A stretch of 64,000 bases of DNA from Candidatus Lindowbacteria bacterium RIFCSPLOWO2_12_FULL_62_27 (GCA_001784175.1 MFPR01000006.1:1-64000); one strand, 5' to 3'. Shown: positions 43,985-63,877, counted from the first letter of the stretch. A program made the numbers and translations. The notes: generated by a model not told the origin, from the letters alone.

Positions 43985-44041
43985 GGGTTCAGTTGTTTTT
44001 TACTTGCATTACGGCCTTCAGGATGGGTACACTTGCCTATT

Positions 44042-44725
44042 ATGAGTACGACGACCATGCCTTCGGTTTTGCTGCAGCCTTCGCTGGTGCTCAACAGCGC
44101 CTTCCTGCCCGTGTCGATCGTCCGGGCCTTCGAGGCGCTGTGCCTGGTGGTGACGGAGAAGGCCGACATCCTGTCGGGAGATGACCGCGAACCGATCCGG
44201 TCACAGTTTCTGAGCTTTCCGCTGCCCCGCGTCATTCGACTGCTCAGCTTTTCCGGCATGCCGACCAACCCGTCCTGGTCCCGGCTGAAAGTGCTCTACC
44301 GGGACGACCAGACCTGCGCATGGTGCGGGGTCCGCCGGAAGATCGACCAGCTCGACTGCGACCACATCGTGCCGCGGTCGCGGTGGAAGGAGTGCCCGCG
44401 GGACGTCCGGAGAAAATACGAAGCCCTGCCCGGCAAACTCCAGAACGTCCACGCCCCCTGGAACTCCTGGGAAAACACCGTCGCCTCGTGCCGCCCCTGC
44501 AACGCCAAAAAAGGCAACCGGTTCCACTGGGAAATCGGCTTGAAACTCCTCTGGGAACCCCACGAACCGGAGTACGTGCCGTCGGTGGTCGTCTCCTTCG
44601 AGCGCGCGAGACAAATGGGCTGGCTGGAATATCTCCTGAACACGCGGGGCAAACCCATCTTCCCCTCGGCCGTCAAAATCCTCGCGCTCCCCCCGATCTC
44701 CCGCGCCGTTCATCCGCAACCTTAG
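44042..44725 (+). CDS. HNH endonuclease (McrA-like)
   Basis: LVLN..F.P; RD..CAWCG; DHIVPRSR; WEN.VASC..CN.KK. Confidence 0.9.
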   Translation: MSTTTMPSVLLQPSLVLNSAFLPVSIVRAFEALCLVVTEKADILSGDDREPIRSQFLSFPLPRVIRLLSFSGMPTNPSWSRLKVLYRDDQTCAWCGVRRKIDQLDCDHIVPRSRWKECPRDVRRKYEALPGKLQNVHAPWNSWENTVASCRPCNAKKGNRFHWEIGLKLLWEPHEPEYVPSVVVSFERARQMGWLEYLLNTRGKPIFPSAVKILALPPISRAVHPQP

Positions 44726-44739
44726 TCCGCACCCGGTAT

Positions 44740-44811
44740 TGGGGCGTCGCCAAGCGGTAAGGCAGCGGCCTTTGGAGCCGTTATTCGCAGGTTCGAATCC
44801 TGCCGCCCCAG
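44740..44811 (+). tRNA. tRNA-Gln (anticodon TTG); CCA not encoded
   Basis: TGGGGCG/CGCCCCA acceptor stem, GCGGC-CTTTGGA-GCCGT anticodon arm, GGTTCGAATCC T-arm. Confidence 0.96.
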
Positions 44812-44918
44812 GTTGTTGACACGTCAAGCAGTCATAGAAATTTGAAGAACTTACGAAACAAGACGGACTTCGAAACATTTTTACCCATCTCACGGAATCT
44901 CACCCGATCTCACGCTAT

Positions 44919-45067: not shown

Positions 45068-46483
45068 ATGTATGATCCTGAATCTATGTCACGATCAAAA
45101 CATATCAAATCGCTACGGCGTATCCCGCAGAATAGTGTTGTCGATGACATAACATCAGTACACAGGGCTGCATCCCTGAATGTGGCCGATATCGAATCAG
45201 CGCATCGGTTCCACGTTTATTGCGCCCGATTCCCATCTGAAATCCCTCTGCAAGCCATCAAGGAATATTCAAAAGTCGGACAGATCGTCTTCGATCCGTT
45301 TTGTGGAAGCGGCACCACGTTGGTCGCCGGGTTGCTGATGGGCCGCCAAGTTTGGGGTTCCGACATCGATGAATTGGCGTCGCTCCTCTCATGGGCCAAA
45401 ACCCATCCCGACACTGAGAAAGCCTACGATGCTTTTTCGAATCAATATCAGAAAACTTTGTTTGAGACATTTGAATCTATTTCCGACCACATCGACCATG
45501 TGACATCGAATGTGACCAGCGCAGGGGAAATCCGCGTAAACGGATATTGTCTCGCTTTGCCTGAATTTCTTCCTTTAACCTACTGGTTTCCTCCCAAGGC
45601 CGTCGTGGGATTGGCGGCGATCTCGCAGTATGCGGCTTGCCGCCGCAAAAAAACTTTTCGAGTGGCGGCCGAACTGGCCCTTTCTGCGTCTATCATTTCC
45701 AAGTGGCCAAATACGGTGAGCTACGCCATGGACATCGATCACACGCGTCCGCACCGGAGGATTCGGCGAATTGGGCTTTCCAAAGTCTTTTCCATGTACT
45801 GCGGGCGTCTGGACCGCGTTCTTTCCGCGCTATCGGCATTGCGCCGCCGATACGAAGGAATGGGCATATCAAATAATCTGGATCAGTTGGCCAAAGTCTT
45901 TCCAAACATGGATGCCAGAAATTTGCATCAAGTATCCGATGAAAGTGTTGACCTGATCGTGACGTCGCCACCCTATTTTGACGCCGTTGACTACCCACGG
46001 TCCCATCGGTTTTCCCTTTGCTGGTTGAACAAGCCGGCGCCGCGCTACAATCGCTATATCGGGCTTTATAGAAATTCAAAGTTGAAACTTGATGAATGGT
46101 TGGCAGGCCGGGCGGAATTTATAAAAATATTGCCGGGGAAAGTGAGATCGGACGTTGCTAAAGGAAGCAAATGGGTAACGTTTTTTGAGGATTTGCGGCT
46201 GTCTCTTGGTGAAATGTATCGAGTTCTGGTCAGCGGGGGTACGGCGGTTTGCGTCATCGCGGACAATCAGGTCGGAGGAGTACGAATCGCCGCGCATCAG
46301 GCGATGGTCCATCTAAGCCGGGAGTGTGGATTCGAAGTCGTTCACGTGTCGAAACGGAAGATCGAACCGAGTAAGCGGCGTTTCCCATCCGGTACATTCG
46401 GGTTTGACGGGCCGATGCGGCACGAACACGTCATCGTTATTCGCCGCCCGCCGAAGTCGCGTATCAAAAAAGGCCAAGGCTGA
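45068..46483 (+). CDS. Amino-DNA methyltransferase (N4-C/N6-A type)
   Basis: H.YCARFP, DPFCGSGTT (motif I), VDLIVTSPPY (motif IV). Start is 45068 or 45086. Confidence 0.88.
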   Translation: MYDPESMSRSKHIKSLRRIPQNSVVDDITSVHRAASLNVADIESAHRFHVYCARFPSEIPLQAIKEYSKVGQIVFDPFCGSGTTLVAGLLMGRQVWGSDIDELASLLSWAKTHPDTEKAYDAFSNQYQKTLFETFESISDHIDHVTSNVTSAGEIRVNGYCLALPEFLPLTYWFPPKAVVGLAAISQYAACRRKKTFRVAAELALSASIISKWPNTVSYAMDIDHTRPHRRIRRIGLSKVFSMYCGRLDRVLSALSALRRRYEGMGISNNLDQLAKVFPNMDARNLHQVSDESVDLIVTSPPYFDAVDYPRSHRFSLCWLNKPAPRYNRYIGLYRNSKLKLDEWLAGRAEFIKILPGKVRSDVAKGSKWVTFFEDLRLSLGEMYRVLVSGGTAVCVIADNQVGGVRIAAHQAMVHLSRECGFEVVHVSKRKIEPSKRRFPSGTFGFDGPMRHEHVIVIRRPPKSRIKKGQG

Positions 46484-46489
46484 GAGTTC

Positions 46490-47107
46490 GTGTCAAAGCT
46501 GGCGCAAGATGCCCTGCTTCAATTACACGCTCATCTATTAAAAAGGGATCGCGAAGACGCGCCTGACGAAATGGCCGGCGTTCTTTTACCCTGGCTCATC
46601 GAACAACTCACAAGGGCGTATCCGGGTGTTTCCGATTCCCATCTGATCACCGAGTCTGGGGTGGATGCCCTTTGGGAATATCTGCGCCGCCCCGAACGAT
46701 ATCAGCCGGATCGCGCATCCCTGACGACCTATTTGATGGTGGCGGCCCGGGGAGACTTGTTGAACAAACTCCAAAAACAAAAGCGCATCGCGGTGCACGA
46801 AAAAAATTATGAGGAAGGTGTCGAACTTGAGGTGGCGGACGGGAATATGAATATGGGAGATGACTTGGAAGTCGTCGAAACCGTGGCGCAGGTGTCGCAT
46901 GCTGTGAATCAAAAAATACCAGACGGCGCGGACAGAAAGGTGCTTGAATTGATGATGAGCGGGGAAAGAAGGACTTCTGAATATGCCAAAGTCCTTGGTA
47001 TCGAGTTGCTGCCGGCGGACCGACAGGCGTGTGAGGTCAAGCGGGTGAAAGACCGCCTCAAAAAAGTTCTCATTCGTCTGAAAGGGGGTGATCTTCGTGT
47101 CGATTGA
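46490..47107 (+). CDS. Sigma-70/ECF-like RNA polymerase sigma factor
   Basis: Region-2-like DAL..YL.RP.RY.P.R.SL.TYL..AAR.DL.N; region-4-like HTH (EYAKVLGI...VKR.K.RL). Confidence 0.7.
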   Translation: MSKLAQDALLQLHAHLLKRDREDAPDEMAGVLLPWLIEQLTRAYPGVSDSHLITESGVDALWEYLRRPERYQPDRASLTTYLMVAARGDLLNKLQKQKRIAVHEKNYEEGVELEVADGNMNMGDDLEVVETVAQVSHAVNQKIPDGADRKVLELMMSGERRTSEYAKVLGIELLPADRQACEVKRVKDRLKKVLIRLKGGDLRVD

Positions 47108-47489
47108 ACAGGCCATGCCTCTTTTGGCGCGGAGGGCGGAATCCGACCCGCGTTTTATGGGCTGGATTTTGGCCCGATATTGCCAGATGGAAAAATTATC
47201 CATGAATGATCTGACACGCATTCTTGCTTGCACTAAAGAGACGGTCGATAGGCTTTGTATTTGTTTTCGCCCCCGGGCGGAGAATTTTTCAAGTGGGATC
47301 CGGCTTTTGGCCGAAAAATTTATTCTGTCCCCGATCGCGCTCGCTCAAATCGTGCGTCACGTGGATGCCACTGCGGCCATATCTGAAAAAGGGCCGTCAA
47401 AACAATCCATGGACGGTCTTCTCATGGCGGCGCGACCAAAAAAACATTTGCACAAGAAACCGCGCGACAAGGGCGGGAAATCCACATGA
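47097..47489 (+). CDS. Small hypothetical protein, possible HTH / anti-sigma partner
   Basis: Overlaps both neighbours; helical, HTH-like LTRILACTKETVDRL; basic tail. Confidence 0.6.
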   Translation: MSIEQAMPLLARRAESDPRFMGWILARYCQMEKLSMNDLTRILACTKETVDRLCICFRPRAENFSSGIRLLAEKFILSPIALAQIVRHVDATAAISEKGPSKQSMDGLLMAARPKKHLHKKPRDKGGKST

Positions 47490-48268
47490 ATATGAATCTG
47501 ATTGTCCGGTTGGCCGGAGAATTTTGGAGTCGGACGGGCGATCCGGACTCATTTCCAAGGGACATTGAATCGGCCGTATCTCTTTCGATTCCGATGGCCA
47601 TTGTTAAACTTCCGAGGCTTGAAGTGTCCGCGATTGCCCAGTGGTTTGATCAACGCGGCATCCAGCGTCCTTTTCCTCCCGATGGCCGACCTCTCGCGGG
47701 TTGTCTCATCGCCTTTCGAGGGCAGGCCATCGCCTTTCTGGACGGAGCGGAGCCGGCCGACGAACGAAGATTTAACCTCGCCCATGAGGTTGCGCATTTT
47801 TTGCTCGATTATCTGGATCCGCGCCTGCGCGCTTTGGACCATTTTGGCCCGAGTATACTGGATGTTCTCGATGGACTCCGGCGTCCCAGCGTAACGGAAC
47901 GGGTTGATGCTCTTTTGAGCCGTGTGGCCTTGGGTGTCCATGTCCATTTGATGGAAAGAGGACGCAGGCGTGAGGTCGATCCAGAATCTGTAGCTGTTTC
48001 GGAACACTGGGCGGATGTCCTGGCCTTCGAACTGCTGGCGCCGCGAAGGCGTGTGACATCGATAATTGGGCGCGCCGAATCGTCGTCGCTGGATAGCGTT
48101 TCTGATACCGGTGTCGAAAAGGCGGCGGGGTTATTGGCCAAAGAATTTGGATTGCCGCCTGGTGAGGCTGAAATATTGGCGAAACTGATTTTGAAACCGA
48201 AACACAAACCGCATTCCTTGCTTCACGAACTCGGATTCTCACCTGTAAAGAAAGGGGTGGATAGATAA
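47486..48268 (+). CDS. ImmA/IrrE family Zn metallo-endopeptidase
   Basis: RRFNLAHEVAH (HExxH) and E..AD.LA.ELLAP. Confidence 0.88.
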   Translation: MNMNLIVRLAGEFWSRTGDPDSFPRDIESAVSLSIPMAIVKLPRLEVSAIAQWFDQRGIQRPFPPDGRPLAGCLIAFRGQAIAFLDGAEPADERRFNLAHEVAHFLLDYLDPRLRALDHFGPSILDVLDGLRRPSVTERVDALLSRVALGVHVHLMERGRRREVDPESVAVSEHWADVLAFELLAPRRRVTSIIGRAESSSLDSVSDTGVEKAAGLLAKEFGLPPGEAEILAKLILKPKHKPHSLLHELGFSPVKKGVDR

Positions 48269-49492
48269 ATGGAAGAAGAATCAATTGCGGAAGTTCCGGC
48301 CCTGCCGGTTCTGGATGAAGATGCGGTGATCAGCGGTGCGGAGTGGGAACGCGCCTATGGCGAAAAAATTGAGCACATGCTGAATCTGGACACATGGAAA
48401 AGCGGTGACGATCTGCCCGGCCTATTGGAGCGATTGGACCGGGAGATCGGAGAGGCACTTTCACAAGAGGATAATCTTCAGAGACAGATTCGGGACTTGT
48501 TGTTCCCCAGAATCGGCAAACAAAAGGGCGCCCCGAAAAATGCGGGCGTTTACCAGGCCACGGCCGATCAGTTGGATCGTGTCTATCGCAAAATTCTGTT
48601 TAATGGCGGAGTCGAAGCCTGTGATGGAACAAGCCTCGTCCATGACACTCTGCCCATGACCATCATCCAGATCGGGGTGTGCCTTGTGTCCTATCATGGA
48701 GAGCAGGGATCGTGGATCCAGCGTTTTTACAGGCGTGATTTGCGCGTCCGCGGGACTGATATCGTGGATGAAGCCCTTAAGATTCTTGGGCAACGAGAGC
48801 GCAAAGATTCGCGCGGCAAACCTCTTCGCATGAAAATGACAGAACTCAGCAAGAGAGGAATCATGGCCTACGCGGAGCGGGCCGCGCTCCTGCAAAAATG
48901 CACGGCGCCTTGGAGAATGGGGCAAGGAAACCCGGCGCCTTATGAGCTTTTGACCGGCTCTGGCAGTCCGGAACTGATTGAGCAGAGTCTGCCGATTCTT
49001 GAAGAGTTGATCGGACACATCAAAAGATTTGTGTTTATTCCAAGCTCGACGACCAATGTTTTGATTCAAACGATTGGCCAGGCTCTGCGTCCCCTTGAAT
49101 TCGCTATTGTGGATACCGAAGCCCATCGGATAGGCGCGCTGGTAGACAGAGGCCACTACAGAGGCGATCAGTATCGAGCGCAGAAGGAGCGTTTGGATGC
49201 ATTCGTACAGGATTTGGGTCCGCAGATCGTGGTGGGCGTCTACCGAGCTACCCATGAGGCGCCTGCGCAAGTGTTCTACGCGCATGAGGAGCACGCGCAG
49301 GAAGCGGCGCTCATTGCGATGGCGGACAGCGCCCTGCAGGCGCATCGCGGATTTCCGATGCTGATCGACATTGCGGATTCCATTTGTAGCGGGGCCTTCG
49401 GGCTGGACGGATTCAATTCCAGTATCCAGAGCGCCTATGCGAAGCACGGCCAGCCCCTGCGTTATCTGGGCGAGAGGGAAACCCGTCGGTAA
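48269..49492 (+). CDS. NurA-like (RNase H fold) nuclease
   Basis: ACDGT, AYAER, C-terminal GFPMLIDIAD (compare the NurA GYP..L..A motif); directly before HerA. Confidence 0.65.
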   Translation: MEEESIAEVPALPVLDEDAVISGAEWERAYGEKIEHMLNLDTWKSGDDLPGLLERLDREIGEALSQEDNLQRQIRDLLFPRIGKQKGAPKNAGVYQATADQLDRVYRKILFNGGVEACDGTSLVHDTLPMTIIQIGVCLVSYHGEQGSWIQRFYRRDLRVRGTDIVDEALKILGQRERKDSRGKPLRMKMTELSKRGIMAYAERAALLQKCTAPWRMGQGNPAPYELLTGSGSPELIEQSLPILEELIGHIKRFVFIPSSTTNVLIQTIGQALRPLEFAIVDTEAHRIGALVDRGHYRGDQYRAQKERLDAFVQDLGPQIVVGVYRATHEAPAQVFYAHEEHAQEAALIAMADSALQAHRGFPMLIDIADSICSGAFGLDGFNSSIQSAYAKHGQPLRYLGERETRR

Positions 49493-49563
49493 ATTTTTCG
49501 GATGTTGTCGAACTTTCCGTGGCCGGCGGGAATAAAGAGAGGACAACAAAAAAGGAGGCTGAC

Positions 49564-51456
49564 ATGGAAACTGAAACAAGCGGTTCGTCAACATTGGCGG
49601 ATAAGAAAGATTGGAAACCAGGCACCGTCTCATCCGAAACCATGGAAGGAATAGACGCTGTCGCGGAAGAGGTGGGAGCGGAATATACATCCCTGCCCGA
49701 ACACGAGGGCGCGATTGCGTTCACCCATTTTGATACGCCGAGCAGCGAGGACCACCGCATCACGGTCCTCCTGACAAAGGAAAATATGGCATCCATGCCT
49801 CTTCAGTCCCTTGTTCGGATAAAAAGCCTGGAGGACAGCAGATCTTACATCGGGAGCGTGACCGCCGGGCCGTTTGCCGAACCCGATGGCCTCCGGGCGG
49901 ATTCGCCCATTGTTGTGACAACGACCGTCAAGGGCAAAATATTTCTGCCGCGCTATCACGGGCGTGCTTACGTATCGATTCTTGGGGAAGAATCAAACAA
50001 TCAGATGTTGCCGCCCCGTTTCCGGCCTCGGCCGAACAGTCCGGTATTCCCTCTCACGACCGAGGAAACCATGAAGGCGCTGAAAATCGGGGGAGATATT
50101 CGGATTGGGAACATGGTGGGTGTCGACAATCTGGTGGTTTCGATCCCGTCGAAACGTAAAGATGTCCTTCCGCGTCACACAGGGATTTTTGGAACGACCG
50201 GCGGCGGTAAATCGACGACCAACTCCGGCCTCATCAGCAAACTTCACCGCGCGGGCGTGGCCACGATCGTGATTGATGTGGAGGGTGAATATGTGGAGAG
50301 CGACCAGCCCACGGCCGATCCCCAAATGAAGGAAGGGCTGGCCAAACTCAATCTTCCGAGAGACGTCGTGGCCGATCTTCGGGTTTATCACTTGGAAGGC
50401 CGGGAGACGAACCGGGAAATCCCGGGGAAACTCCATCCTTTTTGTTTGAAATTTTCAGACATCTCCCCGTATGCGGTCAAGGAGATTTTGGAACTGACCG
50501 AGCCACAGGAACAACGTTTTTTCAAAACCTATGACACGCTCAAAATCATTCTGGAACGTCTCAAGATTTATCCGCGGACGTCGGATGAAAAGACCGAGGC
50601 GCTGGAGATTGACGAATTTGATACGGGTTATCCACATGTGACGATTAGCCAGATGATTGATTTGGCCGGCGTGTTTCTTGCCCAGTTGGACGAGGATAAG
50701 AATTCTAAAAAAACAAAAACGTCGGATTCGGGCGAACAGAGGGTGTACCCCACGTGGACATCGGAGTTTCGAGGACATGAGGATGTTTTGAAATCCTGCG
50801 CCGCGCAGGCGCAGGCCCTTGGCATTCCCATCAGCTGGCGCGCCCTACTGGTTCATTTGTGGAAGGTGGCGCGATTGAAAGTGTTCGACAATCCCAAAGC
50901 GCCGGCGCTCAATTACGAGGATCTGATTCACCCGGGTCGGGTATCGGTGTTCGATCTTTCGGATACCGGATCGCCGCGAGTCAACAATCTGGTCATTTCG
51001 GATATTTTGCGCGGCGTACAGGCGGCGCAGGAGGCTAGCTACAAGGAGGCCGTTAAACGTGGCGTCGCGCCGAGTCCCGTCGTCATCATCATCGAGGAGG
51101 CGCACGAATTTTTGTCCGACCAGCGCATCAAGCAGATGCCCATCCTGTTTCAGCAGGTTGCCCGGATCGCCCGGCGTGGCCGCAAGCGCTGGCTGGGGCT
51201 TGTCTTTTCGACACAGATGCCCCAGCACCTGCCGGACGAGGTTCTGGGTCTGCTCAATAATCACGTCATTCACAAGATATCGGATTCTCACGTGATCGAC
51301 CACCTGCGAAAATCGCTGGGCGGATTCGACGCCGGCATATGGAAAATGGTTCCGAGCCTGGCTCCCGGTCAGGCCGTCGTATCCATGGCTCACATGGCGC
51401 GGCCGATCATGGTCAGCGTTGATCCGACTCCCTGCAGGCTCAAACTGTCCAACTGA
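49564..51456 (+). CDS. HerA/FtsK-superfamily ATPase with N-terminal HAS-barrel-like region
   Basis: H.GIFGTTGGGKS, IDVEGEY, IIEEAHEF, ARRGRK..LGL...TQ; AAGGAGG RBS. Confidence 0.9.
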   Translation: METETSGSSTLADKKDWKPGTVSSETMEGIDAVAEEVGAEYTSLPEHEGAIAFTHFDTPSSEDHRITVLLTKENMASMPLQSLVRIKSLEDSRSYIGSVTAGPFAEPDGLRADSPIVVTTTVKGKIFLPRYHGRAYVSILGEESNNQMLPPRFRPRPNSPVFPLTTEETMKALKIGGDIRIGNMVGVDNLVVSIPSKRKDVLPRHTGIFGTTGGGKSTTNSGLISKLHRAGVATIVIDVEGEYVESDQPTADPQMKEGLAKLNLPRDVVADLRVYHLEGRETNREIPGKLHPFCLKFSDISPYAVKEILELTEPQEQRFFKTYDTLKIILERLKIYPRTSDEKTEALEIDEFDTGYPHVTISQMIDLAGVFLAQLDEDKNSKKTKTSDSGEQRVYPTWTSEFRGHEDVLKSCAAQAQALGIPISWRALLVHLWKVARLKVFDNPKAPALNYEDLIHPGRVSVFDLSDTGSPRVNNLVISDILRGVQAAQEASYKEAVKRGVAPSPVVIIIEEAHEFLSDQRIKQMPILFQQVARIARRGRKRWLGLVFSTQMPQHLPDEVLGLLNNHVIHKISDSHVIDHLRKSLGGFDAGIWKMVPSLAPGQAVVSMAHMARPIMVSVDPTPCRLKLSN

Positions 51457-51458
51457 TC

Positions 51459-53168
51459 ATGCTGCCGGCCAATTCGTCAGATCCGCTGATTCCAGTTCGT
51501 GCATTGAATCAAATCAATTTTTGCGAACGGCTGTTTTACTTGCAATATGTCGAAGGTCTGATGGCAGTGAACGCCTACGTGGAGGACGGCAGCGTCAAAC
51601 ATCGCCGGATGGCGGAAATATCGGCTCCCTGCCAGCCGCGCATGGAGGATGGAGTGATACACACCCGAAGCGTCAGCCTCTCATCCGAGAGACTTGGGAT
51701 TACGGCCAAGCTCGACCTCGTCGAGGAAACAGACAACAAGATATTTCCTGTCGAATACAAGCGGTCAGCCGCGCCCGCCGGCGGAAACCCATGGTGGGAA
51801 AATGACGCGATCCAGCTGTGCGCCCAGGTTTTTCTTCTGGAAGAACATCTGGGAAAGGCGATCCATGAGGGCGTACTCTATTACATTGGATCGAAATCCA
51901 GGAGCGTCGTTCCGATGGACGCATCCCTTCGGGAGAAAACACTGCATGCCATTCGCCGCGCCCGGGAACTGTTCGCGTCTGACAAGACGCCGCCTCCTTT
52001 GCCGGTCGAAAAGGCTCACCGGTGTGAGGGGTGCTCGCTGGTGGCGATCTGTCAGCCGGAAGAGACAAGAATGTTGACCGGAATGAAGACGCTCCGGAGA
52101 AATGCGGCCTCCGGAGTGACACGAGTGATGCCGACGCGGAACGATGGCGCCGTGCTTTACCTCCAGGAGCAGGGATCGCGGGTTTCAAAGCAAAGCGAGC
52201 ACCTGATCGTGCGATGCGAGGGGAAAGAAATGCAAAAGGTTCCAATGGCGGCTGTCCGGCAGGTGCTGCTTTTTGGCAACGTCCAAATTTCGACGCAGAC
52301 CCTGGGATTGTTGCTTCAGCAGGAAGTGGACGTCACGATTTTGAGCGCACGGGGCCGGTTTATCGGCGCTGTGGTCCCGGCGCCCACGAAAAATGTCACG
52401 TTACGGGCGGAGCAATATCGACTGTTTTCAAATCCGGCGGCCACGTTGCGACTGTCACAAGCCTGCATTCGGGCGAAAATTTCAAATCAACGAACGCTGC
52501 TCATGCGGTCCCTGCGATCCAGGGGCGGGGATGTCAGCGTGCCGCGCGGAGGCGATTCCCCGGCGGCGGAGGAGATGGCGCGATTGGCAAATTCAGTTGA
52601 ACGCGTGGAAGACGCGGAAACACTGCTGGGAGTCGAAGGGCAGGCCGCTCACGTTTACTTTTCAAATTTTCAGCAGATGATCAAATCCGTCGGCGGCGGA
52701 TTTGATTTCCAGTTCCGCAACCGCCGTCCGCCCCGGGATCCCGTCAACGCCCTTCTCTCGCTCGCCTATTCGCTTTTGGCGAAAGACGCCTTCGCGGCCG
52801 TCCTGACGGTCGGATTCGATCCCTATCTTGGTTTTTACCATGGCTCAAAATTCGGCCGGCCATCTCTCGCCCTGGACATGATGGAAGAATTTCGGGCTGT
52901 GATCGCCGATTCAGTTGTCCTCACCGTGATCAACACCGGTGTTGTTCAGGAAGCCGATTTTCTTCGCTGGGGAAATGCCTGTCAGTTGACCGACCCCGCT
53001 CGAAAACGTTTTTTTGAGGCGTATGAACAGCGGAAGGCCGTTGAAATTACGCACCCTGTCTTCGGATACAAAATGACCTGCGGCCGGATGCTCGAAGTTC
53101 AGGCCCGCCTGCTTGCGGCGTTCGTGCGTGGAGACATTTCCGAATACAAGGGATTCACCGTTCGCTGA
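51459..53168 (+). CDS. cas1: Cas4-Cas1 fusion
   Basis: Cas4 part: C + D...PVEYKR + QLCAQ + CxxCxxxxxC. Cas1 part: GVEG.AA..YF, RRPPRDPVNA.LS, GF.H, LALD.MEEFR. Confidence 0.95.
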   Translation: MLPANSSDPLIPVRALNQINFCERLFYLQYVEGLMAVNAYVEDGSVKHRRMAEISAPCQPRMEDGVIHTRSVSLSSERLGITAKLDLVEETDNKIFPVEYKRSAAPAGGNPWWENDAIQLCAQVFLLEEHLGKAIHEGVLYYIGSKSRSVVPMDASLREKTLHAIRRARELFASDKTPPPLPVEKAHRCEGCSLVAICQPEETRMLTGMKTLRRNAASGVTRVMPTRNDGAVLYLQEQGSRVSKQSEHLIVRCEGKEMQKVPMAAVRQVLLFGNVQISTQTLGLLLQQEVDVTILSARGRFIGAVVPAPTKNVTLRAEQYRLFSNPAATLRLSQACIRAKISNQRTLLMRSLRSRGGDVSVPRGGDSPAAEEMARLANSVERVEDAETLLGVEGQAAHVYFSNFQQMIKSVGGGFDFQFRNRRPPRDPVNALLSLAYSLLAKDAFAAVLTVGFDPYLGFYHGSKFGRPSLALDMMEEFRAVIADSVVLTVINTGVVQEADFLRWGNACQLTDPARKRFFEAYEQRKAVEITHPVFGYKMTCGRMLEVQARLLAAFVRGDISEYKGFTVR

Positions 53169-53175
53169 CCGCTCC

Positions 53176-53463
53176 ATGCCGGAAACCCACATCGTTTCGT
53201 ATGATATTCGGCATCCCAAGCGTCTGCGCCGCGTCGCCAAGACATGCCAGGACTTTGGCTGCCGGCGCCAGCTCTCCGTGTTTTTGTGTAGAATCTCTCC
53301 GGTCGACCTGATACGGTTAAAAGATCGATTGAATGAGATCATTGATCGCAAGAACGACCAGATTCTGTTCATCCGGCTGTGCCAAAGTTGCGGCGATGGC
53401 ATCGAATCGCTCGGTCAGCCGACCTTGCGTCACGATGTCACGGATGTCTGTCTGGTGATCTGA
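53176..53463 (+). CDS. cas2: CRISPR-associated endoribonuclease Cas2
   Basis: IVSYDI..PKRLRRV.K....G.R.Q.SVF. Confidence 0.95.
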   Translation: MPETHIVSYDIRHPKRLRRVAKTCQDFGCRRQLSVFLCRISPVDLIRLKDRLNEIIDRKNDQILFIRLCQSCGDGIESLGQPTLRHDVTDVCLVI

Positions 53464-53471
53464 GGGTGCCT

Positions 53472-56400
53472 ATGGCCGTTAAAACCTATAAAGCTCGAAT
53501 CCATTTTGAATCCCTTCTGAAAGAACCCGCACAGGATCCCGCTCGCTTTCCGAACCGGGCAGCCGAGCTTCGCCAGTTGCTCTGGGATACGCACCGGGCT
53601 TTCAATCAGGGCGTCCGATATTTGATGCAGGAGCTGGTCTTGATGCGTCGTGGCGCCGGCGTCTGGAGAGAAAATTCATATGGAGTATGGAGGGAATGGG
53701 ACAAAATAAAAACATACGATCAGATTGTGGATATTCGCCGACGCATGTCCGCAACCCCGTCGTCAGTCCGTCTTTTGGAAAATCGGGAGCTTCTCGACCG
53801 ATTCCGTCAGGTTGTAAAATCTGAGTCGGAGGCGGTTGAATTGGCGAATGCGTGTTCCGTGATTTTTGATGCGATTTGCCAGCCGGCGGAAGATGGAGAA
53901 CTGGTTCAAATGCCGCGTGATGATCTGGATTTGCTGACCAACCTAAATTCAACTGCAAAGGGAATCCGGGAACGGGGTAAAACCAAAGAAGGGACGGACA
54001 AGAAAAAATCAGGACGAAAATCGTCATGGCCGATGGACAAGGCTGCATGGGAAACGGCGAAAACCTCCGATAGTTCGGCGCATTTTTTAGAGAAGTTGAA
54101 ACAGCACCCGGATTTAAAGGATGCGTTCGGAAACCTCAGTAGTGGTGGCTCGAAAAAACTGGAATATTATAAAAAACTTGCCGGCTCCGCGCCGTGGAAG
54201 GAGTCTCAATCCGTCATTTTGGAGAAAGCCGCGCGATGGAAAGAGGCGAAACAGGAGCGTGAAGAAAAGGAGCAAGATTCTTCCGAGCATGGTTCCAAGG
54301 CCGCTTATCGGCGGTTGTTTGACGCCGGCTGTCTGCCGATGCCTGAGTTTGCGAAATATATCGATGAGAACCAAATTGAATTTGGCGACCTGAAACTTAG
54401 TGATTGCGGGGCGGAATGGAAGCGCGGCATGTGGAATCAGGCGGGCCAGCGGGTGCGAAGTCACATGGGATGGCAGCGCCGGCGCGAAAAAGAAAATGCC
54501 GTCTATTCTTTAAGAAAGGAACTATTCGAAAAGGGCGGCGCCATTCGACGCAAGAAATCCGAAGAACTGACGCCGGAGGACATTTTACCCGGTAAGGCGG
54601 CTCCAGACCAGAATGATTGGCAGGAGCGGCCTGCCTATGGAAATCAGATGTGGTTCATCGGTCTGCGTTCCTATGAAGAAAATGAAATGGCCAAATATGC
54701 GGAAGAGGCCGGGATGGGTTCGCGGTCTGCTCCGCGAATTCGAAGGGGCACGATCAAAGGCTGGTCGAAGCTCCGCGAACGCTGGCTGCAGATTTTGAAA
54801 AGGAATCCGCAAGCGACTCGTGACGATCTGATCGGCGAGCTAAATGCCCTGCGCTCTCAAGACCCGCGGGCGTATGGCGACGCGCGGTTGTTTGATTGGT
54901 TGTCCAAGACGGATCAGAGATTTTTATGGGACGGTTTCGATGCGGATGGAAAAATTTTATGCGGGAGGGACGATCGTGACTGCGTCTCGGCATTTGTGGC
55001 GTATAACGAAGAATTCGCGGATGAGCCTTCGTCGATCACCTTGACGGAAACGGATGAACGTCTTCATCCCGTGTGGCCGTTTTTCGGCGAATCCTCGGCA
55101 GTGCCATACGAGATCGAATATGATTTGGAAACCGCTTGTCCGACGGCTATTCGATTACCCCTGCTGGTTGGCAAGGAGAACGGCGGATATGCGGAGAGAC
55201 AGGGGACTCGGTTGCCGCTTGCAGAATATGCGGATTTGGCCAGCAGTTTTCAATTGCCCACGCCTGTGCGGCTTGACGTCCTTGTAGAAATTCGAGAAGT
55301 CACAAGAGCCGGCAGGAAAGTGACATGCCCCTTTTCGTATTTTAAGCAGAATGGTGTTTGGTATGTCCGAGAGGGGGAGATTCCATCCGGAGAATCAATC
55401 CAGATCAAACAGACGGACCGCAAAATTGAAAATGGAAAAATATTCATTTCCTCCAAACTGCGAATGGCGTACCGGGACGATCTCATGGTGTCGCCTGCAA
55501 CCGGAGATTTTGGGAGCATCAAAATTCTTTGGGAGAGAATCGAACTGGCGTCGCATGTCGATCAGAAAAAACTGCCGGAAACAGCTCCCGCGCGTTCACG
55601 CGTTTTTGTCTCGTTCAGTTGCAATGTCGTGGAGCGGGCGCCGCGCAAACAACTGACCCGAAAGCCAGACGCCGTTGTGGTGACCATTCCAAGCGGTGTG
55701 GATCAGGGACTGGTTGTCGTCTCGACTGATGTCAGGACAGGGAAATCCAAATCTTCTTCCGCGCCGCCACTGCCGCCGGGATCGCGCTTATGGCCTGCCG
55801 ATGCCGTTCATGGTGATCCGCCTCTTCGTATTTTGAGTGTGGATTTAGGGCATCGTCATTCAGCCTATGCGGTGTGGGAGCTGGGTCTTCAGCAAAAGTC
55901 ATGGCGGGCCGGAGTCTTGAAGGGATCTACTCAAACTCCTGTTTATGCGGATTGTACGGGAACGGGACTGCTTTGCCTGCCGGGTGATGGAGAAGATACG
56001 CCGGCGGAGGAAGAATCCTTGCGTTTACGATCGCGGCAGATTCGCAGGCGGTTGAACCTGCAAAACTCCATCTTGCGCGTGTCGCGTCTTTTGTCGTTGG
56101 ATAAATTTGAAAAAACGATTTTTGAGCAGAGCGATGTCAGGGACAGGCCCAATAAAAAGGGATTGCGGATTCGCAGGCGTTGTCGCACAGAAAAAACTCC
56201 GCTCAGCGAGGCGGAAGTTCGGAAGAATTGTGACAAGGCCGCCGAGATATTGATCCGATGGGCTGATACGGACGCCATGGCCAAGTCGTTGGCGGCGACA
56301 GGGAACGCAGATATTTCATTCTGGAAATATATGGCAGTGAAAAATCCGCCGCTGTCGGCCGTTGTTGATGTGGCGCCATCGACGATTGTCCCTGACGATG

Positions 56401-58004
56401 GCCCGGATCGAGAAACGCTGAAAAAGAAACGGCAGGAGGAGGAAGAGAAATTCGCCTCCAGCATTTATGAGAATCGGGTGAAACTGGCCGGGGCTTTATG
56501 TTCCGGCTATGATGCCGATCATCGGCGGCCGGCGACAGGAGGATTATGGCATGATCTCGACCGAACATTGATTCGTGAAATCAGTTACGGGGACAGGGGC
56601 CAAAAAGGCAATCCGAGGAAGTTGAACAATGAAGGGATCCTTCGGCTTTTGCGCCGCCCACCCCGTGCCAGGCCTGATTGGCGTGAGTTTCATAGAACGT
56701 TAAATGACGCCAATCGGATTCCCAAGGGCCGGACTCTGCGAGGCGGACTGTCGATGGGCCGGTTAAACTTTCTGAAAGAAGTTGGTGATTTTGTCAAAAA
56801 GTGGTCATGCCGGCCGCGTTGGCCTGGTGATCGCCGCCATATTCCGCCCGGCCAACTATTTGATCGACAGGATGCCGAGCATCTGGAGCATCTCCGGGAC
56901 GACCGGATCAAACGTCTGGCGCATTTGATCGTCGCGCAGGCGCTTGGATTTGAACCGGACATCCGGCGTGGGTTGTGGAAATATGTGGACGGGTCGACCG
57001 GGGAAATATTGTGGCAGCATCCTGAAACGAGGCGCTTTTTCGCAGAAGGCGCCGCGGGTGAATTGCGGGAAGTCTCGCGGCCGGCTGAAATAGATGACGA
57101 TGCCGCGGCAAGACCCCACACGGTTTCAGCGCCGGCTCATATTGTAGTCTTCGAAAATCTCATCCGGTATCGATTCCAGTCGGACAGGCCGAAGACCGAG
57201 AACGCCGGCCTCATGCAGTGGGCGCACCGGCAGATCGTGCATTTCACCAAACAAGTGGCGTCTCTTTATGGCCTGAAAGTGGCCATGGTCTATGCGGCGT
57301 TCTCATCCAAATTTTGTTCACGTTGCGGTTCGCCGGGCGCCCGCGTCAGCCGTTTTGATCCTGCATGGAGAAATCAAGAATGGTTTAAACGTCGAACTTC
57401 GAATCCGCGAAGCAAGGTCGACCATTCGTTAAAGCGGGCATCGGAAGATCCAACGGCAGATGAAACCCGGCCGTGGGTTCTGATCGAAGGAGGCAAAGAA
57501 TTTGTATGCGCCAATGCCAAATGTTCTGCGCATGATGAACCATTAAATGCCGATGAAAATGCGGCGGCGAATATCGGACTGCGTTTTCTTCGGGGTGTCG
57601 AAGACTTCCGTACAAAGGTTAATCCGGCGGGAGCTCTCAAAGGGAAACTCAGATTCGAAACGGGAATCCATTCATTTCGACCGCCTGTGTCGGGATCGCC
57701 GTTCTGGAGCCCGATGGCAGAGCCGGCGCAAAAAAAGAAAATCGGAGCGGCGGCGCCCGGAGCGGATGTTGACGAAGCCGGGGATGCGGATGAAAGTGGC
57801 GTTGTGGTTTTGTTCCGTGATCCAAGCGGCGCCTTTCGGAACAAGCAATACTGGTATGAAGGCAAGATATTCTGGTCAAATGTCATGATGGCGGTCGAGG
57901 CCAAAATTGCGGGGGCAAGTGTTGGCGCAAAGCCTGTGGCGGCATCCTGGGGCCAAGCTCAACCGCAAAGCGGACCCGGACTCGCCAAACCAGGAGGTGA
58001 CTGA
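53472..58004 (+). CDS. cas12b: Type V-B effector Cas12b (C2c1), 1510 aa
   Basis: MAVK..K...LW.TH..FN.GVRY N-terminus; HPVW; RuvC SVDLG (D791), VFENL (E1228), NADENAA (D1361); GGLS..RL; next to cas4/1, cas2 and the array. Confidence 0.92.
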   Translation: MAVKTYKARIHFESLLKEPAQDPARFPNRAAELRQLLWDTHRAFNQGVRYLMQELVLMRRGAGVWRENSYGVWREWDKIKTYDQIVDIRRRMSATPSSVRLLENRELLDRFRQVVKSESEAVELANACSVIFDAICQPAEDGELVQMPRDDLDLLTNLNSTAKGIRERGKTKEGTDKKKSGRKSSWPMDKAAWETAKTSDSSAHFLEKLKQHPDLKDAFGNLSSGGSKKLEYYKKLAGSAPWKESQSVILEKAARWKEAKQEREEKEQDSSEHGSKAAYRRLFDAGCLPMPEFAKYIDENQIEFGDLKLSDCGAEWKRGMWNQAGQRVRSHMGWQRRREKENAVYSLRKELFEKGGAIRRKKSEELTPEDILPGKAAPDQNDWQERPAYGNQMWFIGLRSYEENEMAKYAEEAGMGSRSAPRIRRGTIKGWSKLRERWLQILKRNPQATRDDLIGELNALRSQDPRAYGDARLFDWLSKTDQRFLWDGFDADGKILCGRDDRDCVSAFVAYNEEFADEPSSITLTETDERLHPVWPFFGESSAVPYEIEYDLETACPTAIRLPLLVGKENGGYAERQGTRLPLAEYADLASSFQLPTPVRLDVLVEIREVTRAGRKVTCPFSYFKQNGVWYVREGEIPSGESIQIKQTDRKIENGKIFISSKLRMAYRDDLMVSPATGDFGSIKILWERIELASHVDQKKLPETAPARSRVFVSFSCNVVERAPRKQLTRKPDAVVVTIPSGVDQGLVVVSTDVRTGKSKSSSAPPLPPGSRLWPADAVHGDPPLRILSVDLGHRHSAYAVWELGLQQKSWRAGVLKGSTQTPVYADCTGTGLLCLPGDGEDTPAEEESLRLRSRQIRRRLNLQNSILRVSRLLSLDKFEKTIFEQSDVRDRPNKKGLRIRRRCRTEKTPLSEAEVRKNCDKAAEILIRWADTDAMAKSLAATGNADISFWKYMAVKNPPLSAVVDVAPSTIVPDDGPDRETLKKKRQEEEEKFASSIYENRVKLAGALCSGYDADHRRPATGGLWHDLDRTLIREISYGDRGQKGNPRKLNNEGILRLLRRPPRARPDWREFHRTLNDANRIPKGRTLRGGLSMGRLNFLKEVGDFVKKWSCRPRWPGDRRHIPPGQLFDRQDAEHLEHLRDDRIKRLAHLIVAQALGFEPDIRRGLWKYVDGSTGEILWQHPETRRFFAEGAAGELREVSRPAEIDDDAAARPHTVSAPAHIVVFENLIRYRFQSDRPKTENAGLMQWAHRQIVHFTKQVASLYGLKVAMVYAAFSSKFCSRCGSPGARVSRFDPAWRNQEWFKRRTSNPRSKVDHSLKRASEDPTADETRPWVLIEGGKEFVCANAKCSAHDEPLNADENAAANIGLRFLRGVEDFRTKVNPAGALKGKLRFETGIHSFRPPVSGSPFWSPMAEPAQKKKIGAAAPGADVDEAGDADESGVVVLFRDPSGAFRNKQYWYEGKIFWSNVMMAVEAKIAGASVGAKPVAASWGQAQPQSGPGLAKPGGD

Positions 58005-58021
58005 TAGAATGACGGCGTCAT

Positions 58022-58306
58022 ATGAGAATTAAAGGCCTGATCTGGCTGGAAGAATATATCGATAAACTCGAGCACAAGCACCAATTGACGCAGGAGGAAG
58101 TCAGAGAGATTTTCAAAAACCAGCCTCGTTTCCGATATGTTGAAAAAGGCGCCCAAGAGGGGGAGAATGTGTATGTGGCGAAGGGGCAGACGGAGGCGGG
58201 TCGGTATGTGAGTGTGTTTTTTATTTATAAAAAAACGGGCTGGGCATTGGTTATCTCAGCGCGAGAGATGAAACCGAAGGAGAAAAAGAGATATGAAAAA
58301 AGGTAG
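58022..58306 (+). CDS. BrnT family toxin
   Basis: W......KL..KH.L..EE..E.F...G.T..GR......VISAR.M..KE...Y. Confidence 0.85.
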   Translation: MRIKGLIWLEEYIDKLEHKHQLTQEEVREIFKNQPRFRYVEKGAQEGENVYVAKGQTEAGRYVSVFFIYKKTGWALVISAREMKPKEKKRYEKR

Positions 58307-58568
58307 AGGTTCGATTTCTGGAGGTAAAACGTACAAGCAGATCGGCGAGTTTTGGGACACGCACGATCTTGGCGACTATTGGGCCCGGACACGACCCGCA
58401 TCCTTCGAAGTCGATCTCCAAGCCGAAATGACGTATTGTCCCCTGGAAAGGGATTTGTCGAAGAAAATCCGTTCCATCGCCCAGCGGCAGGGCGTTACGC
58501 CCGATACGCTGGTGAATCTGTGGTTGCAAGAAAAAGTGCAGACGCAAGTTCAGGAGAAGATGGCATAG
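58293..58568 (+). CDS. BrnA/CopG-type antitoxin
   Basis: EFWDTHD..DY followed by RHH-like IA...GV....LVN.WL.E; overlaps the toxin gene. Confidence 0.85.
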   Translation: MKKGRGSISGGKTYKQIGEFWDTHDLGDYWARTRPASFEVDLQAEMTYCPLERDLSKKIRSIAQRQGVTPDTLVNLWLQEKVQTQVQEKMA

Positions 58569-58689: not shown

Positions 58690-58860
58690 ATTTGTTTTCA
58701 CTCAAAGTGTGTCTTCGGCCTCCCAGGCATGGCACAGCCTAGCCGAATTCGGGGGTGTTAGGTTCACGGTCTATTGGCCGTGAACTTAATCCCGCCTAAC
58801 CGCGGGACGACTGAGTGGAGTCAGCTGTTATGAGGAGGATTTTCAAAGCAGGTGTCCAGA
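58690..58860 (+). ncRNA. Putative Cas12b tracrRNA (ends approximate)
   Basis: Anti-repeat GCTGTTATGAGGAGGA (58824-58839) pairs 15/16 with the repeat; GTGTC (58709-58713) is complementary to the repeat 3' end; closing stem TTCACTCA/TGAGTGGA; three internal hairpins. Confidence 0.75.
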
Positions 58861-59056: not shown

Positions 59057-59677
59057 GAGGAAATTTCCTCCTCACAACAGCGGGCTTGGACACTACGGAG
59101 ATAGTCACGGATTGTCTCCTGTGTTGTGAGGAAATTTCCTCCTCACAACAGCGGGCTTGGACACGGATCATCCTCTGGTCAACGGGTCTTTGGATCGTCG
59201 TGAGGAAATTTCCTCCTCACAACAGCGGGCTTGGACACAATTCCTTTACGATCTGGCCACAGCATCAGGCCACGGAGGAAATTTCCTCCTCACAACAGCG
59301 GGCTTGGACACAGCCCGCCGCCGACCTCGGCCAGCACCGGCGCGGTGAGAGGAAATTTCCTCCTCACAACAGCGGGCTTGGACACTTTCTTTTCCATGCT
59401 CGATACTCCTTCATCGACATGAGGAAATTTCCTCCTCACAACAGCGGGCTTGGACACTTATGACATAACCCGGACTAGCATTGTCTGTTAGTTGAGGAAA
59501 TTTCCTCCTCACAACAGCGGGCTTGGACACGCGTTGCAGTAACTGCGATATGCAGTTGCCCGATATGAGGAAATTTCCTCCTCACAACAGCGGGCTTGGA
59601 CACTCTAAACCTACATCTTCTCTACCTAATCATCCACGAGGAGGAAATTTCCTCCTCACAACAGCGGGCTTGGACAC
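59057..59677 (+). CRISPR. CRISPR array: 9 identical 37-bp repeats GAGGAAATTTCCTCCTCACAACAGCGGGCTTGGACAC and 8 spacers of 34-37 bp
   Basis: Repeats start at 59057, 59128, 59202, 59275, 59349, 59421, 59494, 59567 and 59641. Orientation inferred from the Cas12b-like ..GGACAC 3' end and the anti-repeat. Confidence 0.98.
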
Positions 59678-59796
59678 AGAAATTTTTCGTGCCAGTATTT
59701 CCCGGCTGGCAGGCCGTGCGGCGAGGGGCCGCCTGAGATCGCGGGTGGTGGACTCGCTCTCGCGTGTCCTTGACCGCCTATCATGTGGTTGATTTT

Positions 59797-63163: not shown

Positions 63164-63181
63164 GGATTTCGGCTCCATTTC

Positions 63182-63825: not shown

Positions 63826-63877
63826 AGGCAGCGGCCTTTGGAGCCGTTATCCGCAGGTTCGAATCCTGCCGCCCCAG
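63826..63877 (+). repeat. attR: 52-bp duplicate of the tRNA-Gln 3' portion
   Basis: 51/52 identical to 44760-44811; lacks the tRNA 5' end. Confidence 0.95.

Follow-up and report, generated by a model that had tools for sequence, protein, structure and literature searches.

A mobile HerA-NurA cassette with a private promoter-like motif precedes a type V-B CRISPR-Cas locus in a Candidatus Lindowbacteria genome

We analyzed a 64,000-nucleotide stretch of the genome of Candidatus Lindowbacteria bacterium RIFCSPLOWO2_12_FULL_62_27 (GCA_001784175.1, MFPR01000006.1:1-64000; hereafter, the window), in which genes for a DNA methyltransferase (MTase), a sigma-like protein, a small protein (orf3), an IrrE-like protease, a NurA-like nuclease candidate, and a HerA ATPase stand directly before a type V-B clustered regularly interspaced short palindromic repeat (CRISPR)-Cas locus. 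The first six genes (45068 to 51456) are a copy of a conserved cassette of five to six genes that is horizontally mobile; it contains a NurA-fold/HerA pair and a protease with a conserved active site and carries a private, oriented motif at fixed places, and behind herA lies variable cargo, in which co-oriented cas genes recur. With moderate confidence, we favor the reading that the cassette is a restriction-modification-like HerA-NurA defense module under the control of a sigma/protease switch and that the V-B CRISPR-Cas genes of the window sit in its regulated cargo slot. A literature search, made mostly without subscription papers, returned no description of an MTase/sigma/IrrE/NurA/HerA cassette, and the combination is apparently undescribed.

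The cassette begins with an N6/N4 DNA MTase gene (45068 to 46483; Pfam N6_N4_Mtase, 67.8 bits against a cut-off of 26.7; PADLOC MTase_II, 8.5e-30), whose translation contains motif I (FxGxG) followed by SPPY. After 6 bp comes the sigma-like gene (46490 to 47107), whose product resembles regions 2 and 4 of an extracytoplasmic function (ECF) sigma factor. It is overlapped by 20 bp by orf3 (47088 to 47489), which encodes a small conserved protein, and orf3 is joined through an ATGA overlap to the IrrE-like gene (47486 to 48268), which encodes an ImmA/IrrE-type M78 zinc metallopeptidase. The NurA-like gene (48269 to 49492), which encodes a 407-amino-acid (aa) RNase H-like nuclease candidate of the NurA fold, starts 0 bp after the IrrE-like gene, and herA (49564 to 51456), encoding a HerA-type hexameric ATPase/translocase, follows after 71 bp. 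The ATG of herA at 49564 is preceded by the Shine-Dalgarno sequence AAGGAGG, and an alternative GTG start at 49519 falls within the promoter-like motif described below. An earlier reading made without database searches (the sequence-only reading) had listed a string of eleven co-oriented genes between 45068 and 58568 together with the gaps and overlaps between them, and all of these were reproduced, on the plus strand, from the open reading frame (ORF) coordinates. Its names for the MTase, the M78 protease, HerA, Cas4/1, Cas2, and Cas12b were supported by family searches; its sigma factor was matched only below threshold, and its NurA was recovered by fold and not by sequence. The two genes at the end of the string had been left without a name there and encode BrnT and BrnA.

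Relatives of the cassette were collected from genomes and metagenomes. Among genomes, one per species was scanned by pattern, which gave 140 relatives, of which the best-scoring 80 were kept; in the metagenomes, at least 376 relatives were confirmed, and the best-scoring 80 were again kept, two of them being the window itself. Near-identical copies were collapsed to 144 clusters. All genome loci (80/80) and 78 further metagenome loci share this gene order, and the arrangement is therefore not due to chance. When the window proteins were used as tblastn queries, HerA was found beside the NurA-like gene in 79/80 genome and 70/80 metagenome loci, the IrrE-like protein in 74/80 and 70/80, the sigma-like protein in 72/80 and 59/80, the MTase in 51/80 and 48/80, and orf3 in 46/80 and 41/80; many, or most, of the misses fell at contig ends. 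Among 81 nonredundant loci with at least 2.5 kb of sequence upstream of the sigma-like gene, 66 contain the MTase. In 52 loci it is encoded upstream in the same orientation, and in 9 it lies behind herA on the opposite strand.

The hosts belong to the Chloroflexota, Planctomycetota, Actinomycetota, Acidobacteriota, Verrucomicrobiota, Nitrospirota, Thermodesulfobacteriota, Cyanobacteriota, Deinococcota, and other groups, and the relatives spread across these many phyla are about 50% identical. At the same time, copies are rare: a search of 401 genomes of the phylum of locus L018 with the family profile recovered the cassette once, in L018's own genome, and the NurA-like gene of the window was found in none of 3 genomes of the same family and none of 37 more distant genomes (0/40). 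The NurA-like protein had no match in plasmid or phage collections and only 3 loci in IMG/VR. Compared protein by protein with PADLOC v2.0.0, the cassette matched no named system, its proteins matching only the generic MTase_II model, HerA models (mad8 among them, at 1.2e-19), and, weakly, capP. The suggestion that the upstream six-gene block may be a standalone system is thus borne out by its recurrence in the same order at many loci and by the lack of a matching PADLOC v2.0.0 system.

The nuclease candidate was assigned by structure. An AlphaFold2 (AF2) model of the NurA-like protein, built with an 82-row alignment, reached a predicted local distance difference test (pLDDT) score of 89.7, and a Foldseek search of PDB with this model returned NurA or HerA-NurA structures at ranks 1 to 6 (E, 1.3e-6 to 4.3e-5; probability, 1.00). 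The top structures were NurA of Sulfolobus solfataricus and Pyrococcus furiosus and the HerA-NurA complex of Thermococcus kodakarensis (2ygk, at an E of 1.3e-6; 3tal; and 9x1n), and lower matches included TdpAB (8wfd_G; E, 2.5e-4), endonuclease V, and the PIWI domains of Argonaute. The NurA fold proposed earlier is confirmed by this search of the model. Because none of the 82 family members matches Pfam NurA at an E of ≤1, the modeled protein is a remote, fold-level relative of NurA; no relevant Pfam family was found in any of the 82, and the family profile gave nothing below an E of 0.26 against PDB. As candidates for the catalytic acidic/His residues of the RNase H-like core, D119 (on the first strand of the core), E203, H339, and D353 do not vary among the 82 sequences. 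The family is large, with at least 2,476 proteins at an E of ≤0.001 among 8,000 candidates scored, all of them without a name. A single-sequence AF2 fold of the same protein (pLDDT, 35.6) was useless, and the modeling was redone with the alignment.

Its partner was identified directly by sequence. HerA exceeds the cut-offs of Pfam DUF87 (62.3 bits, 9e-17, against 23.2) and HerA_C (40.3 bits, 2.1e-10, against 22), matches PADLOC HerA at 5.6e-25, and contains a Walker A motif (GTTGGGKST) in its translation. The closest solved relative by sequence is HerA of S. solfataricus (4d2i; 3.7e-21), and TdpA was also matched (5.8e-9).

The IrrE-like protein passes the cut-off of Pfam Peptidase_M78 (23.7 bits against 22) and matches PADLOC capP at 3.7e-6; its family profile found IrrE (0.009) and CapP (0.02) in PDB. 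The HExxH residues H100, E101, and H104 are invariant or nearly so in 62 sequences of the family. For orf3, a candidate anti-sigma factor or protease substrate, the leads were weak and pointed to a helix-turn-helix (HTH_3; PDB profile, ESM Atlas). In complex predictions for the sigma-like and IrrE-like proteins with orf3 as a partner, a control scored nearly as high, and these predictions gave no verdict either way.

A new result of this analysis is a strand-specific, promoter-like motif that is private to the cassette. The pattern TGTCG-N18-GGAA occurs in 56 of 124 spacers between the IrrE-like gene and nurA (shuffled maximum, 6), and the aligned instances, which read TGTCGAACTT(T)-N12-13-(C/G)GGAAT(A), lie 45 to 120 bp before nurA. 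The geometry of the motif (TGTCGA, 17 bp, GGAATA) is bipartite and sigma-70-like; the motif has a GAAC core, as do ECF -35 elements, and clade-specific -35 variants (TGTCGAAC, TGTCGCAC, and TGTCGTA) are visible. The motif can be written TGTCGAACTT-N12-15-GGAAT. A position weight matrix (PWM) scan of the 144 loci (1.87 Mb) matched the cassette strand 149 times and the opposite strand once; shuffled DNA gave 0 matches. Most of the 149 fall at a few places: 77 are ≤300 bp upstream of nurA, 43 are at one place inside the sigma-like gene, 14 are in the nurA-herA gap (the clade of the window), and 11 are ≤1 kb after herA, with 4 elsewhere. Searches for a motif upstream of the MTase, upstream of the sigma-like gene in MTase-less loci, and in the gap between the MTase and the sigma-like gene gave nothing above shuffles.

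Codon use was compared at the place inside the sigma-like gene where the motif lies. In sigma-like genes picked by the peptide VEL....GN alone, the codons were GTC in 19/19, GAA in 19/19, CTT in 15/19, GGG in 19/19, and AAT in 18/19, compared with background uses in the same genes of 35, 47, 18, 25, and 57%, respectively. The synonymous codons are thus fixed, and the constraint therefore acts on the DNA.

In the window, there are exactly 2 motif matches, against 0 in 100 shuffles. Copy 1 (46819 to 46846, plus strand) lies inside the sigma-like gene, upstream of orf3, the IrrE-like gene, and nurA; copy 2 (TGTCGAACTT-N13-GGAAT; 49506 to 49533, plus strand) stops 30 bp short of the herA ATG, with AAGGAGG coming after it. 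The whole 4.39-Mb genome contains the motif only twice, and both copies are those inside the cassette. The proposal that the sigma/peptidase unit controls expression gains support from this strand-specific motif, with its two genomic copies and the position of one of them 30 bp before the herA-cas4/1 pair. A sigma-70 and terminator consensus scan of the window was at background (12 versus 9.8 and 19 versus 18.7, respectively) and was uninformative.

The cas genes follow herA almost without interruption. Read directly from the sequence, the junction consists of the herA stop codon (TGA, 51454 to 51456), the 2 bp TC, and the ATG of cas4/1 at 51459. The cas4/1 gene (51459 to 53168), a Cas4-Cas1 fusion (Pfam Cas_Cas1, 3.1e-93; Cas_Cas4, 2.2e-16; PADLOC Cas1g, 2.7e-157), is followed after 7 bp by cas2 (53176 to 53463; Pfam CRISPR_Cas2, 7.8e-21) and, after a further 8 bp, by cas12b (53472 to 58004; NCBIfam Cas12b, 960.5 bits against a cut-off of 150), for which PADLOC Cas12b (3.1e-292) and the Pfam C2c1 RuvC-like family give further support. 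A BrnT toxin gene (58022 to 58306; Pfam BrnT_toxin, 40.6 bits against 34.5) starts 17 bp after cas12b and is overlapped by a BrnA/CopG antitoxin gene (58293 to 58568; Pfam CopG_antitoxin, 32.4 bits against 28); all of these genes are on the plus strand. Because the motif stands 30 bp before herA and the genes behind it either overlap or are no more than 17 bp apart (2, 7, 8, and 17 bp), the V-B genes are predicted to belong to one transcription unit with herA, and herA, cas4/1, cas2, cas12b, and brnTA to form a single induced transcript.

What follows herA varies from locus to locus, and CRISPR-Cas is one of several alternative cargo modules. Motif copies located after herA precede plus-strand genes for Cas3 (L059), Cas4/1 (L079), an Mre11/SbcD-like phosphoesterase of the Metallophos family (L002, L115, and L117), RmuC (L017 and L111), and proteins of no known family (L091, L120, and L133). 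In L117, the Mre11/SbcD-like gene is followed by a gene for an 891-aa SMC-type ATPase and then by cas4/1-cas2. In the window, L126, and L143, the motif stands before herA and the cas genes after it, with cas4/1 starting 2 bp (window) or 4 bp (L126) behind herA; in L018, which is the other V-B locus, the motif precedes nurA-herA, and cas4/1-cas2-cas12b follow after about 84 bp.

Two observations concern further cargo. Mre11/SbcD-like and SMC/Rad50-like genes lie behind herA in L002 (13928 to 15202), L117 (6521 to 10323), L115 (13108 to 15369), and L019 (13093 to 16853), L019 being included through clustering; these cassettes recreate in bacteria the archaeal-type herA-nurA-mre11-rad50 set. In L014 (13345 to 14868), a SAVED-domain protein, which carries a sensor domain of the type known from the cyclic oligonucleotide-based antiphage signaling system (CBASS), stands behind a high-scoring motif copy, and no cyclase was seen among the ORFs examined in that locus.

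Linkage of the cassette to CRISPR elsewhere, which the sequence-only reading had left to a search for the gene order, was found: cas genes lie within 10 kb in 22 of 95 nonredundant cassettes. They are directly downstream on the same strand in 18 of the 22 and downstream and co-oriented in 20. Unbiased clustering of the ORFs in the 6 kb after herA, across the 95 loci, placed Cas1 as the largest family (13), followed by the MTase of the cassette where it takes its alternative position (12), by Cas3-like helicases (11), and by Cas2 (11). Among 104 cassettes with at least 300 bp of sequence after herA, a co-oriented cas1 or cas4/1 starts within 1 kb after herA in 14, and cas1 is elsewhere within 10 kb in five more. 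The linked subtypes include V-B, I-G, I-C, I-E, and I-B-like, the majority of linked loci being type I. PADLOC identified Cas12b in L018; Cas3g/Cas8g or Cas7g/Cas5-6g in L043, L126, L026, L079, and L066; Cas8b in L080; Cas3c in L061; Cas3e in L064; Cas6 and Cas3 in L055; and Cas3 in L059, L006, and L027. In L072 and L080, cas4/1 is broken into several frames, which represent either decaying cas genes or errors in metagenome-assembled genomes.

On a tree of NurA plus HerA (94 loci, 22 of them linked), the CRISPR label needs 17 changes, and the 18 adjacent cases alone need 15; on an IQ-TREE phylogeny of the NurA-like protein alone, the well-supported branches force at least 7 changes. CRISPR linkage has therefore arisen or been lost many times.

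In the window, one 19-kb island integrated at a tRNA-Gln gene holds the cassette together with the V-B locus and the toxin-antitoxin genes, as indicated by repeats of the 3' end of the tRNA gene, a drop in G+C content, and the absence of the cassette from the 3 and 37 other genomes noted above. The tRNA-Gln gene (TTG; 44739 to 44812, plus strand; ARAGORN) provides the attL-like left junction with its 3' part; there the G+C content falls from about 0.64 to 0.54. A direct repeat of its 3' 52 nucleotides (nt), with 1 mismatch, forms the attR-like right junction (63826 to 63877, plus strand), and a 40-nt version of the same 3' end recurs 0.8 kb further on, just past the window (G000:C6:64624-64663, L164). 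No integrase was seen in the 19-kb island. Such a succession of two copies points to islands in tandem; the second is an islet of 0.8 kb with ORFs of 88 and 125 aa that, judged by eye, resemble a toxin-antitoxin pair.

According to the favored reading, the MTase would mark host DNA, the sigma-like protein, orf3, and the IrrE/ImmA-type protease would together constitute a switch, and the NurA-fold nuclease and the HerA ATPase would act together as a translocase-nuclease that loads at DNA ends and destroys foreign DNA lacking the mark. At rest, orf3 would hold off the sigma-like factor; upon infection or DNA damage, the protease would become active and orf3 would be removed, and the freed sigma-like factor would read the motif and fire the motif promoters, so that NurA-HerA and the downstream CRISPR-Cas genes would be induced together. 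We infer this order of restraint and relief by analogy with IrrE/DdrO, ImmA/ImmR, and CapP/CapH. An ECF sigma/anti-sigma pair is known to control a type III-B locus in Myxococcus. The proposal that NurA-HerA would degrade unmodified DNA and the MTase would protect self draws on mechanistic details of TdpABC, in which TdpAB spares modified DNA, and of the methylation-based defense system MADS. DNA ends and degradation products released by NurA-HerA may in addition favor spacer capture by Cas4/1-Cas2, in analogy to RecBCD/AddAB.

Several points weigh against this reading. The promoter, the operon, and the induction are predictions. The sigma-like protein remains below every curated cut-off (Pfam Sigma70_r2, 20.2 bits against 24; TIGR02937, 24.7 bits, 1.4e-5, against 42.9), and the best PDB matches of its family profile are ECF sigma factors at E values of 0.016 to 0.5, with SigK the best at 0.016. 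Neither orf3 nor the NurA-like protein has a family match by sequence in Pfam, PADLOC, NCBIfam, or PHROGs, and the Foldseek template modeling (TM) scores of the NurA-like model are modest (0.31 to 0.49, all <0.5). The motif is missing upstream of nurA or herA in 46 of 128 loci at the PWM threshold applied. The Mre11/Rad50-like and RmuC cargo would also fit a role in DNA repair. All frequencies come from the 80 loci per collection that score best against this query and may be biased accordingly. The MTase is absent, within the DNA examined, from 15 of 81 cassettes, and methylation-based self-marking is therefore not universal; to that extent the self-marking role given to the MTase in the sequence-only reading is not supported. 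No cas genes are near 73 of the 95 cassettes. Cas12b was present in 5 of the 401 genomes sampled from one phylum, and the cassette was absent from the DNA fetched at the four of these Cas12b loci other than L018, one of the contigs being too short upstream to judge. Any coupling to CRISPR-Cas is therefore facultative, and the idea of a composite system specific to type V-B fails on these counts and on the type I majority among the linked loci.

The main competing explanation is that the block is a dedicated CRISPR-ancillary module, in which NurA-HerA mainly helps adaptation or interference by supplying prespacers to Cas4/1-Cas2 or shredding Cas-cut DNA, and adjacency reflects a biochemical partnership. 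We regard this as unlikely. Where cas genes lie downstream (20 loci), the one nearest to herA is cas1 or cas4/1 in 14, the herA-cas gaps go down to 2 to 4 bp (window and L126), and the canonical V-B loci G295 and G120 have a different order (cas12b-cas4/1-cas2). Of the 15 cassettes without an MTase, 7 are CRISPR-linked, versus about 15 of the 66 with one; these counts are not independent, because the MTase-less loci fall mostly in two clades. The literature offers parallels, too: NurA and HerA appear in a figure legend of Altae-Tran et al. (2023, Science; PMC10910872) as putative CRISPR auxiliary genes, in the portions consulted Shah et al. (2019) and the papers on Csa3a of Sulfolobus link archaeal herA/nurA with cas genes, and archaeal Csa3a is described in PMC5587795, likewise consulted in part, as coactivating adaptation cas genes and DNA repair genes. 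The main-text section consulted of Altae-Tran et al. describes the NurA/HerA entry no further (PMC10910872), and the entry may or may not belong to the cassette family. Set against a dedicated module are the 73 of 95 cassettes that do without nearby cas genes, the six linked loci in which an effector or processing gene (cas3, cas6, or cas7) and not cas1 abuts herA, and the unrelated cargo that fills the same slot.

Within the favored reading of a regulated defense module, the 14/20 and 7/15 counts nonetheless hint at prespacer feeding. A stronger version, a portable "alarm and feed" unit in which coinduced NurA-HerA would turn unmethylated invader DNA into substrates for Cas4/1-Cas2 and restriction, cas induction, and spacer acquisition would share one transcription unit, is put forward only tentatively, and we consider it doubtful.

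Less probable still is an inducible module for double-strand-break repair or damage response, in which the IrrE-type switch would turn on resection by HerA-NurA, sometimes with Mre11/Rad50-like proteins, and the neighbors would be incidental. IrrE-type proteases and bacterial NurA-HerA are indeed known from Deinococcus stress biology, in the parts of that literature consulted, and genes for Mre11/SbcD-like proteins, SMC-type ATPases, or RmuC stand behind the same motif in some loci. A repair role sits poorly, however, with a DNA MTase as a core component (66/81 loci), with cas genes as the commonest neighbors, with the location of the window copy in a tRNA-borne island alongside CRISPR-Cas, BrnTA, and AbiE, and with a patchy, rare occurrence (1/401 genomes in one phylum; 0/40 relatives) that yet spans many phyla at about 50% identity, as is typical of mobile defense genes. 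Plain defense-island juxtaposition, in which an independent cassette and CRISPR-Cas stand side by side and a cas promoter goes unrecognized inside herA, is very improbable: defense systems do cluster in islands (that of the window also has AbiE, BrnTA, and a TOTE-type remnant), the linkage is often gained and lost, and the background level of the sigma-70 consensus scan is compatible with internal promoters, but cas genes are downstream on the same strand in 20 of the 22 linked loci, many herA-cas gaps are <120 bp, Cas1 is the top downstream family in the unbiased tally, and the motif lies directly before cas3 (L059) and cas4/1 (L079) and before herA-cas in the window, L126, and L143.

Compared with known systems, the cassette shares with the HerA-NurA end-resection complex of S. 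solfataricus, P. furiosus, T. kodakarensis, and Deinococcus radiodurans the pairing, in an operon, of a HerA ATPase with an RNase H-like NurA-fold protein, and the Mre11/SbcD-like and SMC-type genes added in some relatives are a further likeness. In contrast to that complex, its nuclease has no detectable similarity to Pfam NurA, the pair forms part of a larger set that includes an MTase, a sigma-like factor, orf3, and an M78 protease and has its own motif, and the whole is rare, mobile, and island-borne. Bacterial NurA-HerA is described as acting in defense in the part consulted of a 2026 review. TdpABC has in common with the cassette a DNA modification gene and a HerA-like (TdpA)/NurA-like (TdpB) pair, and it needs only tdpC for modification, according to the portion consulted of PMC12914056. 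The cassette differs in that its modifier is an N6/N4 MTase and not the phosphorothioation protein TdpC, in its three extra regulatory genes, and in its recurrent CRISPR linkage.

MADS (mad1 to mad8) is methylation based, has ATPase-nuclease modules, and cooperates with CRISPR-Cas (PMC13662399, consulted in part). The cassette HerA matches the mad8 model (1.2e-19); no mad model was matched by the other cassette proteins at an E of ≤0.01, this being judged for the MTase from the best 25 of its 58 matching models, and PADLOC gave no match to the sigma-like protein, orf3, or the NurA-like protein. The gene set of the cassette differs, without a kinase or OLD-like MAD3/4, and the sections consulted of PMC13662399 describe no sigma/protease unit for MADS. 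CapH/CapP of CBASS, IrrE/DdrO, and ImmR/ImmA resemble the cassette in that an HExxH M78 metalloprotease stands beside a small partner upstream of defense genes; in the cassette, the partners are an ECF-sigma-like protein and orf3 instead of an Xre-type repressor, and the output is a dedicated motif.

If the favored reading is correct, a widespread, unnamed defense cassette would combine a methylase and an archaeal-type HerA-NurA shredder with a sigma-like factor, a protease switch, and a promoter of its own, and cas genes of several subtypes (V-B, I-G, I-C, and I-E) would be plugged into the inducible promoter of another defense system, which would bear on how infection triggers cas expression and spacer acquisition. 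A compact, seemingly orthogonal regulatory circuit would be made up of the motif, the sigma-like protein, orf3, and the protease; since the motif occurs only twice in the 4.39-Mb genome, this circuit is directly testable with reporters. The motif would also be a simple sequence handle for finding further cargo genes under the same control.

The window contains the Cas12b effector, Cas4/1, Cas2, and the CRISPR array of a type V-B system. The array (59057 to 59677, plus strand) has 9 identical 37-nt repeats and 8 spacers of 34 to 37 nt; two of the eight spacers, queried with 30 nt each, had no exact match in IMG/VR. A repeat search found a 21-nt anti-repeat (58819 to 58839, plus strand) that is 86% complementary to the CRISPR repeat and is a candidate segment of the trans-activating CRISPR RNA (tracrRNA). 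All parts of a canonical V-B locus (cas12b, cas4/1, cas2, tracrRNA, and array) are thus present in the window, the tracrRNA as this candidate, whereas the gene order is cas4/1-cas2-cas12b, 2 bp behind herA and without promoter room of its own, Cas12b is 1,510 aa long, and the array is separated from cas12b by the BrnTA pair, with which the closely spaced run of genes ends. This length is unusual. The Cas12b matches in the one-phylum sample lie in open frames of 1,380 to 1,667 aa (L018, 15212 to 19540; L167 to L170), and Cas12b chains in PDB have 1,108 to 1,137 aa, except for one entry of 1,496 aa (9kln). The Cas12b of the window looks like a member of a long-form lineage with large insertions.

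Directly after the CRISPR array lies a primase-helicase of the archaeo-eukaryotic primase (AEP; TOTE/PrimPol-type) group (59764 to 61454, plus strand; Pfam AEP-TOTE halves 1-134 and 132-229 and Helicase_C; PADLOC PrimPol). It is split into two overlapping frames (59764 to 60570 and 60351 to 61454), which represent either a frameshifted pseudogene or an assembly error. Further toward the right junction, on the minus strand, are an AbiEii toxin gene (61498 to 62556; PADLOC AbiEii, 1.5e-97) and an AbiEi antitoxin gene (62549 to 63178; PADLOC AbiEi, 9.9e-63).

Outside the island, a 230-aa ORF (44033 to 44725) just upstream of tRNA-Gln has weak HNH motifs below the Pfam cut-offs. The remaining window is ordinary chromosome, with genes for a class A penicillin-binding protein, a Ser/Thr kinase, and an A/V-type ATPase subunit. 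At its 5' end, a giant ORF of >5,000 aa (3 to 15119), open at the window edge, contains many NosD/beta-helix and FG-GAP repeats and probably encodes a surface or adhesin-like protein.

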